Positions 8,493-12,220 of a stretch of 12,220 nt of DNA are shown piece by piece. The notes under the pieces were generated by a model that was not told the origin of the DNA, did no database searches, and saw nothing but the letters and a program-made list of their open reading frames with translations. The position numbers and the translations under genes were made by a program. This DNA is from a virus (taxonomy: Duplodnaviria > Heunggongvirae > Uroviricota > Caudoviricetes), in IMG/VR virus record IMGVR_UViG_2534681937_000031; one strand, 5' to 3'. Positions within the stretch are counted from its first letter, which is position 1, and each line of letters opens with the position of its first letter.

Positions 8493-9050
8493 ATGACCAC
8501 TATTACCAAAGATCGACTGCTGACAATCCAGCATTGGCGCGAAACATACGGACCGGGTAGCAACGTTGTGCTTCCAGCAGAAGAAGCGGAAGAGCTGGCA
8601 CGGATTGCGCTGGCATCACTGGCAGCAGTATCGGATGAACGAGCAGCCTATGAATTATTTATGGAGAAGCGTTTCGGGGAATCTGTAGATCGCCGCAGAG
8701 CAAAAAATGGCGATAGAGAATACATGGCATGGGATATGGCGCTTGGCTGGATTATCTGGTGTCACCGCGCCGCCATGCTTCAGGCTGGAAACTTTCGGGA
8801 AAATAAGGGTTCGTCAACCAATAATTTTCGGATAATCTCGGAAACGTCAACCAACTCTCCGGCAATCCCTGATGAGGTGTTGTCCGCAATCCTGAAGGTC
8901 GCCAGGCTTCGTGCAGATTTCGATGCTTCTGAAGTGGACAGGCGAGGTATCGGTAGTTGTCTGGATGAGGCCGAGCAAGAACTTATCGTTACCATTAACG
9001 AATACGCCAGTCAGATCGCAGTAGAAGCGACACAGGGGGAGAACCAATGA
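8493..9050 (+). CDS. hypothetical protein
   Basis: 185-aa ORF, ATG 8493 two nt after the upstream stop; its stop overlaps the start of a 25-codon ORF (ATGA). Confidence 0.55.
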   Translation: MTTITKDRLLTIQHWRETYGPGSNVVLPAEEAEELARIALASLAAVSDERAAYELFMEKRFGESVDRRRAKNGDREYMAWDMALGWIIWCHRAAMLQAGNFRENKGSSTNNFRIISETSTNSPAIPDEVLSAILKVARLRADFDASEVDRRGIGSCLDEAEQELIVTINEYASQIAVEATQGENQ

Positions 9051-9124
9051 GCCGGCCAGATGCATTTGCAGGCGTTGCTATAGCTATTGCTTTTCTAGTA
9101 TATGTTATTTGTCGGTGGGGGTAA
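9047..9124 (+). CDS. candidate small hydrophobic peptide (25 aa, MSRPDAFAGVAIAIAFLVYVICRWG)
   Basis: Not in the ORF track (under 60 aa). ATG overlaps the stop of the 8493-9050 gene; single predicted TM helix. Confidence 0.3.
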   Translation: MSRPDAFAGVAIAIAFLVYVICRWG

Positions 9125-9159
9125 AAACGTTCGCCGGGATTCACACCAAGGGAGGGAAT

Positions 9160-9264
9160 ATGTCGGATGATATTTCACTGGTAATGGAAGGCGCTCTGGC
9201 TGTTATTGCTGTTGTGGGTGTTTACTGCCTGGTTGTGTTTTTGATGGAGCGCCTGGGGAACTGA
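9160..9264 (+). CDS. candidate small hydrophobic peptide (34 aa, MSDDISLVMEGALAVIAVVGVYCLVVFLMERLGN)
   Basis: Not in the ORF track. Strong SD AAGGGAGGG just upstream of ATG 9160; single predicted TM helix; followed by a palindrome. Confidence 0.4.
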   Translation: MSDDISLVMEGALAVIAVVGVYCLVVFLMERLGN

Positions 9265-9507
9265 ATTCATTCCGTATGGGAATTCCCATATCGGGCAAAA
9301 CGGTTTGCTGTAAAGCGAGAGTTAAGTAGAATTGCTGCGGGTGCTTGAGGCTGTCTGCCTCGGGCATGCCACCGTAAGGCAGACAGAGAAAAGCCCCAGT
9401 TAACATTACGCGTCCTGCAAGACGCTTAACATTAATCTGAGGCCCAATCTATGCTTCACAAACGTAGGTTAGCCTCTTACGCGCCGAAAGGCAAGGAGAA
9501 GCAGGTT
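9265..9507. other. hok leader/regulatory region (expected site of mRNA fold-back elements and any Sok-like antisense RNA)
   Basis: Contains a 22-bp near-palindrome CCGTATGGGAATTCCCATATCGG (9272-9294) and the hairpin CTGTCTGCC-N18-GGCAGACAG (9351-9386). An in-frame upstream ATG at 9451 with GAGG SD precedes hok. Antisense RNA not located. Confidence 0.35.
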
Positions 9508-9663
9508 ATGAAGCAGCAAAAGGCGATGTTAATCGCCCTGATCGTCATCTGTTTAACCGTCATAGTGACGGCACTGGTAACGAGGAAAGACCTCTGCGAG
9601 GTACGAATCCGAACCGGCCAGACGGAGGTCGCTGTCTTCACAGCTTACGAACCTGAGGAGTAA
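9508..9663 (+). CDS. hokD: Hok/Gef-family type I toxin (HokD/RelF-like, 51 aa)
   Basis: Translation MKQQKAMLIALIVICLTVIVTALVTRKDLCEVRIRTGQTEVAVFTAYEPEE matches the Hok family and, as recalled, E. coli HokD. AAGGAG 9 nt upstream of ATG. Confidence 0.9.
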   Translation: MKQQKAMLIALIVICLTVIVTALVTRKDLCEVRIRTGQTEVAVFTAYEPEE

Positions 9664-9731
9664 GAGACCAGGCGGGGGAGAAATCCCTCGCCACCGCTGA
9701 TGTGTCAGGCATCCTCAACGCACCCGCACTT

Positions 9732-9759
9732 AACCCGCTTCGGCGGGTTTTGTTTTTTC
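9732..9759 (+). terminator. rho-independent terminator (AACCCGC-TTCG-GCGGGTT followed by TTTGTTTTTTCT)
   Basis: 7-bp GC-rich stem, tetraloop and U-rich tract about 70 nt after the hok stop. Confidence 0.75.
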
Positions 9760-9779
9760 TGGTCGTTCTGGTTTACAAT
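9750..9779 (+). promoter_or_regulatory. possible promoter restarting rightward transcription (-35 TTGTTT, -10 TACAAT)
   Basis: TACAAT at 9774-9779 with TTGTTT 18 bp upstream; overlaps the terminator U-tract. Confidence 0.3.
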
Positions 9780-9830
9780 CCATCCGTCAGCCTGAACAAC
9801 TGGCACCTGCTGCGCCAGCAGAGAAAACAG

Positions 9831-10109
9831 ATGGCGCACGATACCAAATTTTACAATTCGGATAACTCTGCCGCCCCTGCCAGCAGGCACGGGCGGCGTT
9901 CTCATGCATTCAAATCTGACTGGTATCAGCACGACCCCTGCACCGAAGAACAGGCTGAATGGCTGATTCAGTGTTACCGCAGGCGCGGATACGAGGTTAA
10001 GAAAGCCCTCAGTCTCGATTATCGTCACTGGATAATCTCCGTCAGGCTTCCTTACTCCGAACGCCCACCGCGTCCGTCCCGCACATTCCAGCAACGCATC
10101 TGGAGGTAA
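9831..10109 (+). CDS. hypothetical protein, possibly Rem-like (Qin prophage context)
   Basis: The track ORF 9702-10109 spans the terminator, so the start is moved to ATG 9831 (92 aa). Position between hok and a DUF968 gene mirrors the Qin hokD-rem-ydfU order as recalled. Confidence 0.45.
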   Translation: MAHDTKFYNSDNSAAPASRHGRRSHAFKSDWYQHDPCTEEQAEWLIQCYRRRGYEVKKALSLDYRHWIISVRLPYSERPPRPSRTFQQRIWR

Positions 10110-10110
10110 C

Positions 10111-11115
10111 GTGCGGGTATTACTTCGACCTGTTCTGGTACCGGAACTCGGGCTGGTGATCGTTAAGCCGGGCCGTGAATCCATGCCGGTATTCCACAAT
10201 ACCCGGGTACTGGTGGAGCCGGAACCGAAAAGCATGCGTAATCTGCCGTCCGGGGTCGTTCCTGCCGTTCGCCAGCCGCTGGCGGAGGATAAATCATTAC
10301 TGCCATTTTTCAGCGACGAACGAGTGATTCGTGCTGCTGGTGGCGCTGGCGCACTGTCTGACTGGTTACTGCGCCATGTTAAATCCTGCCAGTGGCCACA
10401 CGGCGATTATCACCACAGTGAAACCGTCATTCACCGTTATGGTACCGGCGCAATGGTGTTGTGCTGGCACTGCGACAACCAGTTGCGTGACCAGACCTCC
10501 GAATCACTTGAGCAACTTGCTCACCAAAACCTGTCAGCATGGATGATTGACGTCATTCGTCACGCAATGAATGGCACACAGGAGCGTGAATTATCGCTGG
10601 CTGAATTATCCTGGTGGGCGGCCTGCAATCAGGTGGTGGATGCACTACCTGAGGCAGTAGCGCGTCGTTCGCTGGGATTACCAGCGGAAAAAATCCGCTC
10701 CGTATACCGTGAGAGTGACATCGTACCGGGAGAACAGACAGCCATCAGCATACTGAAGCAGCGCACAAAAAATATTGCGCTGCCACTTCACGTCCACCAG
10801 CAACAAAATCCACCACAGAAAAAAACGGTTGTCAGTATCGCCGTTGATCCGGAGTCTCCTGAATCGTTCATGAGGCGGCCTAAACGTTGCCGCTGGGTTA
10901 ATGAGAAATACACGCGCTGGGTAAAGACACAGCCGTGTGCGTGTTGTGGTAAGCCTGCTGACGATCCGCATCACCTGATTGGTCATGGTCAGGGGGGAAT
11001 GGGGACAAAGGCCCACGATATTTTCACGCTACCGTTGTGCCGGGTAGCACCACAACGAACTTCATGCAGACCCGACTGGAGTTTGAGAAAAAGTACGGCT
11101 CTCAGATTGAGTTAA
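10111..11115 (+). CDS. DUF968/YdfU-like protein with HNH-like Cys/His motifs; 3' end appears frameshifted
   Basis: GTG 10111 overlapping the upstream stop. C-terminal motifs CACCGKPADDPHHLIGHGQGG...LPLCR, with HHNELHADP then EFEKKYGSQIELIF... continuing in the two other frames up to TAA 11160-11162, just before the rusA RBS. Confidence 0.65.
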   Translation: MRVLLRPVLVPELGLVIVKPGRESMPVFHNTRVLVEPEPKSMRNLPSGVVPAVRQPLAEDKSLLPFFSDERVIRAAGGAGALSDWLLRHVKSCQWPHGDYHHSETVIHRYGTGAMVLCWHCDNQLRDQTSESLEQLAHQNLSAWMIDVIRHAMNGTQERELSLAELSWWAACNQVVDALPEAVARRSLGLPAEKIRSVYRESDIVPGEQTAISILKQRTKNIALPLHVHQQQNPPQKKTVVSIAVDPESPESFMRRPKRCRWVNEKYTRWVKTQPCACCGKPADDPHHLIGHGQGGMGTKAHDIFTLPLCRVAPQRTSCRPDWSLRKSTALRLS

Positions 11116-11174
11116 TTTTTCGTTTTCTTGATCACGCCTTTGCGACTGGCGTGCTCGGGTAAAAGAGGTGACTG

Positions 11175-11534
11175 ATGCTCATAGATTTGGTTTTACCTTA
11201 CCCGCCGACGGTGAACACCTACTGGCGACGTCGTGGCAGCACATATTTTGTATCAAAAGCCGGTGAGCGTTATCGCCGGGCTGTGGCGCTTATTGTTCGC
11301 CAGCAGCGGCTGAAATTAAGCCTGTCCGGAAGGCTGGCGATAAAGATTATTGCCGAGCCACCGGATAAGCGCCGCCGTGACCTGGACAATATTCTGAAAG
11401 CGCCGCTGGATGCGCTGACGCATGCGGGGTTGCTAATGGACGATGAGCAGTTTGATGAAATCAATATTGTGCGCGGTCAGCTCGTTCCTGGTGAGCGGCT
11501 GGGGATAAAAATCACAGAACTGGAGTGCGCATGA
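11175..11534 (+). CDS. rusA: crossover junction endodeoxyribonuclease RusA (Holliday junction resolvase)
   Basis: 119-aa ORF with the RusA-family pattern (YPPTVNTYWRRRG...PDKRRRDLDNILKAPLDALT...LMDDEQ); GAGG 7 nt upstream of ATG. Confidence 0.88.
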   Translation: MLIDLVLPYPPTVNTYWRRRGSTYFVSKAGERYRRAVALIVRQQRLKLSLSGRLAIKIIAEPPDKRRRDLDNILKAPLDALTHAGLLMDDEQFDEINIVRGQLVPGERLGIKITELECA

Positions 11535-12220
11535 ATAACCACTATTTACAGTTTGTGCGTGAGCTGCTCATTATCGCTACCGCCGATTTGAGTGGGGCAA
11601 CAAAAGGTCAGCTTGAAGCCTGGCAGGAGAATGCCATGTTCGATACAGGGCGTTACAGGCGAAAAAAAATCCGGTACCGCGATGAAGTGACTGGAAAAAT
11701 GATAACGCGGGATAATCCACCAATCCCGGGAAAGCAATCGCTGGCGAAGGTGACGTCAATTCCTCTGGTCAGTCCGGTTGAGTTTTCGACATCATCGTGG
11801 CGGCGGGCTGTTCTGTCTCTTGAAGAACATCATAAAGCCTGGTTGTTGTGGTGTTACAGCGGGAGTATTTGTTGGGAATATCAGATCGCGATAACACAGT
11901 GGGCGTGGAATGAATTTAATACTCAATCCGGTACCAGAAAAATTGCAGGGAAAACGCAGGAACGCCTGAAAAAATTAATCTGGCTGGCGGCGCAGGCAGT
12001 AAAAGCAGAACTTTTTGGTGGGGAAGGTTATGAATACAAGGAGCTGGCATTACTGGTGGGAGTGACAACTAAAAACTGGTCCAAAACATTTACTCGTCAC
12101 TGGGTTGCAATGAAACACATTTTTCACCGACTGGATAGTGAGGCTTTATTGTTTGTAATGAGAACGCGTTCAAAACAAAAGGCGGCATTTTCAAAGCAAA
12201 GTGTTGCAAAAGTAGATTGA
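11531..12220 (+). CDS. putative late-gene antiterminator (Q-like, QuuQ/YdfT-type)
   Basis: ATG 11531 overlaps the rusA stop (ATGA). Position immediately after rusA at the right end of the early region is the canonical Q location; family assigned by context only. Stop is the last three bases of the window. Confidence 0.5.
   Translation: MNNHYLQFVRELLIIATADLSGATKGQLEAWQENAMFDTGRYRRKKIRYRDEVTGKMITRDNPPIPGKQSLAKVTSIPLVSPVEFSTSSWRRAVLSLEEHHKAWLLWCYSGSICWEYQIAITQWAWNEFNTQSGTRKIAGKTQERLKKLIWLAAQAVKAELFGGEGYEYKELALLVGVTTKNWSKTFTRHWVAMKHIFHRLDSEALLFVMRTRSKQKAAFSKQSVAKVD

Follow-up and report, generated by a model that had tools for sequence, protein, structure and literature searches.

Two single-nucleotide insertions in one draft contig split a DUF968 gene of an Escherichia coli O157:H7 prophage over three reading frames

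When a prophage gene can be read to its end only by changing frame twice, is the gene decaying, is it recoded, or is it whole in the organism and faulty only in the sequence? A DUF968/YdfU-type gene directly upstream of rusA raises this question in the window (the whole stretch of DNA analysed here, 12,220 nt). The initial annotation described a DUF968/YdfU-like gene with an HNH-like motif divided over three frames, proposed that shifts near 11044–11047 and 11075 would restore a protein of about 349 aa, and considered either a decaying pseudogene or sequencing indels. Here we trace the split to individual bases, place it in the gene family and in the population of related genomes, and weigh an error of the draft against a real lesion and against programmed frameshifting.

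The split reading frame and its intact counterpart

The gene order in the window (hok/sok, a small ORF, DUF968, rusA and Q) is the order annotated in EDL933 and Sakai, and the position of the DUF968 gene between hok/sok and rusA–Q places it in a lambdoid nin region. The gene, of the DUF968/YdfU type, belongs to a lambdoid, Sp14-like prophage carried by E. coli O157:H7. Downstream, the rusA Shine–Dalgarno sequence and the rusA gene (ATG at 11175, 119 aa) occupy 11163–11534 on the + strand and are intact, and rusA is independent of the frameshift upstream of it. The antiterminator Q gene follows as a 690-nt CDS (11531–12220, + strand) that ends on the last base of the window. Upstream, a hok/sok-type type I toxin–antitoxin module lies at 9339–9663; its Rfam sok match (9339–9513, 114.9 bits) overlaps the mok/hokD ORF (9451/9508–9663), and a terminator-like hairpin stands after the module at 9732–9749.

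In the three-frame translation and the ORF list, frame 0 opens with a GTG at 10111 and carries codons 1–311 of the gene (10111–11043, + strand) as far as ...DIFTLPLCR. It then continues as VAPQRTSCRPDWSLRKSTALRLS to a premature TAA at 11113–11115 (+ strand), which yields a product of 334 aa with a 23-residue out-of-frame tail, deposited as EHV27236.1 (ECDEC4F_1475). Frame 1 contains a TAG at 11045–11047 and then encodes HHNELHADP (11048–11074, + strand), that is, codons H313–P321, the half of the HNH motif with the catalytic and metal-binding residues. Frame 2 takes over with LEFEKKYGSQIELIFRFLDHAFATGVLG, which comprises codons L322–G349 and the native TAA (11076–11162, + strand; stop at 11160–11162) and is assigned to positions 138–171 of the 171-position DUF968 profile, absent from the frame-0 ORF. 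This stop directly precedes AAGAGGTG, the Shine–Dalgarno sequence of rusA, so the split and its abutment on the rusA ribosome binding site are as the initial annotation described them.

Megablast of 10111–11540 against 5,426 closed E. coli genomes returned many O157:H7 matches at 99.9% identity, with 1428 nt aligned to the 1430 nt of the window, and up to 8–9 places per O157:H7 genome match this region. Against EDL933 (CP008957) and Sakai, the alignment of the gene region differs solely by two additional bases (both + strand), T at 11045 and A at 11075, and alignment with DEC4E and with a contig of the draft NJJE01 marks the same two bases as extra. The T lies inside codon E312 (GAG becoming G-T-AG), where it causes the first frameshift and makes the frame-1 TAG; the A lies between codons P321 and L322 and causes the second. 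The two +1 insertions are 30 nt apart, neither compensates the other, and neither extends a homopolymer.

Once both bases are removed, the window encodes a 349-aa protein that is 100% identical to WP_001265075.1. Codons 1–311 are identical to the uninterrupted reference gene (EDL933_RS14805 / ECs_2752, prophage Sp14), whose 349-aa product includes ...LPLCREHHNELHADPLEFEKKYGS... and ends ...LPLCREHHNELHADPLEFEKKYGSQIELIFRFLDHAFATGVLG. The three-frame split therefore arises from two 1-nt insertions, T11045 and A11075, and the match of the split frames to one intact gene is not due to chance. Both the approximate shift sites and the approximate restored length proposed from the letters alone proved exact.

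The DUF968 family and its interrupted HNH motif

The restored protein matches Pfam PF06147 (DUF968) over the entire profile (positions 1–171 of 171; 257.6 bits, E=7e-77), and the 334-aa ORF of the window matches positions 1–137 of 171 with 200.6 bits. Both scores exceed the Pfam gathering cut-off for this family, 27.8 bits, and both proteins are thereby members of DUF968. The complete domain is not contained in any one reading frame of the window: its last 34 profile positions fall partly in frame 1 and partly in frame 2, and a single-frame domain is regained when T11045 and A11075 are removed. Over its full length, the restored protein also matches PHROG 96 ('HNH endonuclease'; E=7e-176). Three further PHROG HNH families match weakly over residues about 255–322, and a match to Pfam HNHc_6 is weak as well (22.8 bits, below the cut-off of 26.6). 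These profile matches bear out the family and the motif first assigned to the gene.

The intact C-terminal motif reads C276-x2-C279 ... H287-H288 ... C310-R-E-H313-H314-N-E-L-H318, which is of the zinc-finger HNH / His-Me finger type. Among 27 homologs, C276, C279, H287, H288, C310, R311, H314 and H318 are invariant. The pattern C-x2-C...HH...C-x2-[HC]H-x2-LH is kept in 20 of the 23 loci examined, down to 43% identity, and homologs with the motif in a single frame occur in Enterobacter, Kosakonia, Phytobacter, Klebsiella, Dryocola and Symbiopectobacterium. In comparison with intact DUF968 proteins, the motif is in one frame in all homologs. The family thus carries the HNH Cys/His motif, and in the window this motif is interrupted after C310-R311: codons 1–311 include its first half (C276-x2-C279 and H287-H288), and the frame-0 product would end in-frame at R311, without the H-H-N...H half of the metal finger and without the C-terminal helices. 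Given this loss of the motif, the truncated product is presumably inactive.

DUF968 (YdfU of the Qin prophage) and DUF1364 (YbcO, PDB 3G27) together form group 7 of the His-Me finger superfamily (Jablonska et al. 2017, PMC5714182), and the beta-beta-alpha-metal fold is assigned to the group through YbcO, PDB 3G27 (PMC5714182). RusA and Q are typical neighbours of DUF968 (PMC5714182), and a zinc-finger HNH motif at the C-terminus of DUF968 proteins has been described (PMC4118853). The family, its HNH motif and its position beside rusA and Q are therefore already described. The gene of the window resembles PF06147, YdfU of K-12 Qin and PHROG 96 in its profiles, its Cys/His motif and its RusA–Q neighbours, and differs from them in that its match stops at position 137 of 171. 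Its likeness to YbcO of the DLP12 prophage (DUF1364, PDB 3G27) is one of grouping in the literature, which places YbcO in the same His-Me finger group (PMC5714182), whereas the sequence of the DUF968 protein, used to search the PDB, matched no chain. An AlphaFold2 model built on a shallow alignment has a mean pLDDT of 46.5, the C-terminal helices alone being near 80; at this quality it does not lend itself to comparing folds. On the strength of motif and profiles, the gene is predicted to encode an HNH-type nuclease.

The N-terminal half carries a second, degenerate Cys/His motif (CQWPHGDYHHSETVIHRYGTGAMVLCWHCDNQL, at 10387–10485), in which C93, H101, H102, H108, C118, H120, C121 and N123 are invariant in the 27 homologs. 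Judged by this pattern of residues, the segment may form a further module of zinc-binding or HNH-like type. We also encountered the gene on contigs binned into metagenome-assembled genomes of Veillonella parvula, a member of the Geobacteraceae and Caulobacter segnis, with 85%, 57% and 52% protein identity, respectively; the presence of an enterobacterial prophage gene in these three genomes is likely to be binning contamination.

Distribution of the lesions and structure of the contig

The window is 100% identical to contig AIFP01000015.1 (GCA_000249475.2; 106,949 nt) of the draft genome of E. coli strain DEC4F. In a set of about 15 billion proteins, the 334-aa product is recorded for this one contig only, while the intact 349-aa protein WP_001265075.1 is found on at least 1000 contigs; the 41-aa frame-2 ORF has no protein record anywhere. 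A 101-nt probe over both sites found no place with at least 99% identity in the 5,426 closed E. coli genomes, so neither insertion is present in them, alone or together. A further 464 records fell in the 95–99% band, and the matches listed were all 98.0% identical over 99 nt, which corresponds to the uninterrupted allele. The same probe had no megablast match in the phage collection, and its single match among plasmids lacks the insertions. A pattern with an optional base at each site matched 3 metagenome and 37 viral contigs, and every match was 54 nt long, that is, without insertion. No independent assembly among those searched reproduces the lesion, which was seen on one contig, in 0 of 5,426 closed genomes and on none of the 40 other contigs. 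Neither a closed DEC4F genome nor a paper naming DEC4F was found.

The distribution bears directly on whether the gene might be expressed by functional recoding, through two programmed +1 ribosomal frameshifts. Its sole support is that all three segments are open and contiguous. However, the split occurs in one record only, and every homolog compared, down to 43% identity, has the motif in a single frame; neither GUA-G nor CCG-A offers a slippery or stalling context, and the local fold is no better than that of shuffled sequence (DNA fold of 11015–11095, z=-0.23). A conserved shift site, a slippery or stalling context and a conserved split are all absent, and we reject programmed frameshifting as extremely improbable.

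The contig that holds the insertions is itself unusual. Two prophages of EDL933 account for the window: positions 1 to about 8677 match the potC-adjacent one without a difference, and positions 8643 to 12220 match the mtfA-adjacent, Sp14-like one in every base but T11045 and A11075. Against EDL933 there are 0 substitutions over 12.2 kb, and the two insertions are the sole differences. The same holds for the locus of WP_001265075.1 (mtfA-adjacent lambdoid prophage; Sp14 in Sakai), where the DNA over 8643–12220 is the same bar two bases and the neighbours (hokD, small ORF, rusA, Q) are those of the window, which adds T11045 and A11075 and so encodes a 334-aa frame-0 product. The switch between the prophages falls in a crossover interval without assigned strand (8643–8677), with potC-adjacent sequence to the left and mtfA-adjacent sequence to the right. 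This is a 35-nt identical stretch inside the ORF at 8493–9050, and the join creates an in-frame chimeric DUF551-like ORF.

An 801-nt probe across the 8643–8677 junction was not covered, even to 80%, by any closed E. coli genome. At other places, the potC and mtfA prophages have exact matches in common that reach 452 nt. Either a mis-assembly or a unique recombination or inversion between prophages may have made the join. Since this unsupported junction lies in multi-copy prophage DNA, the assembly around the locus is doubtful. In addition, the window ends 471 nt before the end of AIFP01000015.1, the insertions lie about 1.6 kb from the contig end, and that end falls in an ileZ-argN-argO tRNA cluster downstream of Q that is repeated in many lambdoid prophages. 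In the potC-adjacent part of the window, a remnant of a 3'-5' exonuclease gene stands beside xis and int (1419–1820, - strand); the EDL933 annotation treats it as an incomplete pseudogene that lacks the N-terminus, which indicates that the early region of that prophage had earlier suffered a deletion.

A hybrid contig and up to 8–9 matching places per O157:H7 genome would suit one particular kind of assembly error, in which the consensus mixes reads of paralogous prophage copies and turns single-nucleotide differences into indels. Yet the paralog in the potC prophage and the Escherichia and Shigella alleles have no base difference at either site. They do differ at many positions nearby, but none of these differences has been mixed into the window, and the flanks are purely of the Sp14 type. 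Codon-by-codon comparison, including more distant Enterobacterales homologs, led us to reject paralog mixing, which we consider very improbable.

The same gene copy is broken in a related strain. In the draft genome of DEC4E, a 2-nt CG deletion lies at about window position 11027–11028, 18 nt upstream of the first insertion (about 8944–8946 of the draft segment), and leads to a 323-aa product. We take the DEC4E draft to belong to the same sequencing project as that of DEC4F. Two further assemblies share the deletion: the later closed DEC4E genome (CP038398), whose annotation lists the gene, E3154_RS09985, as a frameshifted pseudogene, and NJJE01000077.1, a contig of an independent draft. Among closed genomes the deletion occurs in DEC4E only. 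E3154_RS09985 is therefore broken within the same 50-nt stretch of the HNH core as the copy in the window, but its lesion is a single 2-nt deletion that has been verified independently, whereas the DEC4F lesions are two 1-nt insertions in one draft. Homologs ending as the frame-0 ORF does would have spoken against a broken gene, but no homolog ends in this way; the out-of-frame tail of the DEC4E protein, the one other such tail found, comes from a different frameshift.

The draft and closed DEC4E sequences differ at 1 position in 13,021 nt, in a T6/T7 run (segment position 11427), a length difference of the kind that sequencing platforms typically introduce, here into one or the other assembly. 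The confirmed deletion and the nearly error-free draft together indicate that such drafts can be accurate at this locus and that the gene decays in nature. Internal stops or frameshifts also mark DUF968 copies on chromosomes of E. coli and Shigella flexneri and on one IMG/VR contig, whose copy has 10 internal stops; decay of DUF968 in resident prophages is not rare. On the metagenome and viral contigs matched by the 54-nt pattern, 31 of the 32 full-length copies are open and one has internal stops.

Draft error or strain-private pseudogene

We somewhat favour the reading that T11045 and A11075 are errors of the draft assembly or its reads over a real pseudogene. Several pieces of evidence argue for it: (i) The allele is a singleton. 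(ii) The insertions are clustered within 30 nt in a sequence with 0 substitutions over 12.2 kb, and a cluster of this kind is more readily explained by a single bad read than by two mutations that arose independently. (iii) The insertions do not compensate each other. (iv) The end of the contig is near, the DNA is repeated, and the junction at 8643–8677 is unsupported. From these we infer an error rather than a mutation. The two bases would then be read or consensus errors left uncorrected where the draft of this multi-copy prophage DNA has thin support, and the DUF968 gene would be intact in the organism. The original alternatives, pseudogene or sequencing indels, are thus the appropriate ones, and the provenance of the window and the population data tilt the balance towards sequencing or assembly error.

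The chemistry known as 454 is prone to indels, and its commonest type of error is the extension of a homopolymer. The DEC drafts are presumably the work of the Institute for Genome Sciences. At that institute, E. coli drafts of the same period were produced with 454 Titanium and Celera 6.0 (PMC3491183). The DEC4F draft may have been made likewise, which would add to the case for an error. Three observations count against an error: no homopolymer is extended, the DEC4E draft is accurate and contains a real frameshift, and decayed copies are known from Shigella and E. coli.

These same observations lend weight to a real, strain-private pseudogene, in which DEC4F carries both insertions and this copy in the prophage is dead, through the ordinary decay of an accessory gene. 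The same gene copy is verifiably decayed in DEC4E, in the draft, the closed genome and the NJJE01 draft alike, and the draft is almost error-free against the closed genome; the insertions are not of the homopolymer type; and further decayed copies are found in Shigella flexneri, in E. coli and in 1 of the 32 full-length viral or metagenome copies. Since rusA has its own Shine–Dalgarno sequence, the loss of DUF968 need not affect the downstream genes. However, a pseudogene needs two independent insertions 30 nt apart in 12.2 kb with 0 substitutions, the second of which brings no benefit, as the frame stays unrestored, and the allele is confined to one draft contig among thousands of O157:H7 assemblies. 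Nor was a signature of a single templated event seen, the new sequence matching neighbouring DNA over 6–7 nt. We hold the pseudogene to be a possible but tentative reading.

A templated or quasi-palindrome mutation was considered in its own right and rejected. Matches of 6–7 nt to nearby DNA are ordinary: among 2,251 simulated non-homopolymer insertions, 47% and 20% reach 6 and 7 nt, respectively.

If both insertions were real, they could, together with the DEC4E deletion, represent a recurrent and possibly selected inactivation of the His-Me-finger core in the DEC4 lineage of O157:H7. We regard this as a long shot; if true, recurrent inactivation might follow, for example, from a cost of the nuclease to the lysogen.

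On the favoured reading of a draft error, the consequences are chiefly for the records. AIFP01000015.1 appears to be a chimera of two prophages and is unsafe as evidence for prophage recombination or decay unless the reads are checked. Frameshifted copies are routinely flagged by annotation pipelines, and the biological weight of the present one is very small. The 334-aa EHV27236.1 probably misrepresents the real gene, and the value of the finding is that of a data-quality flag.
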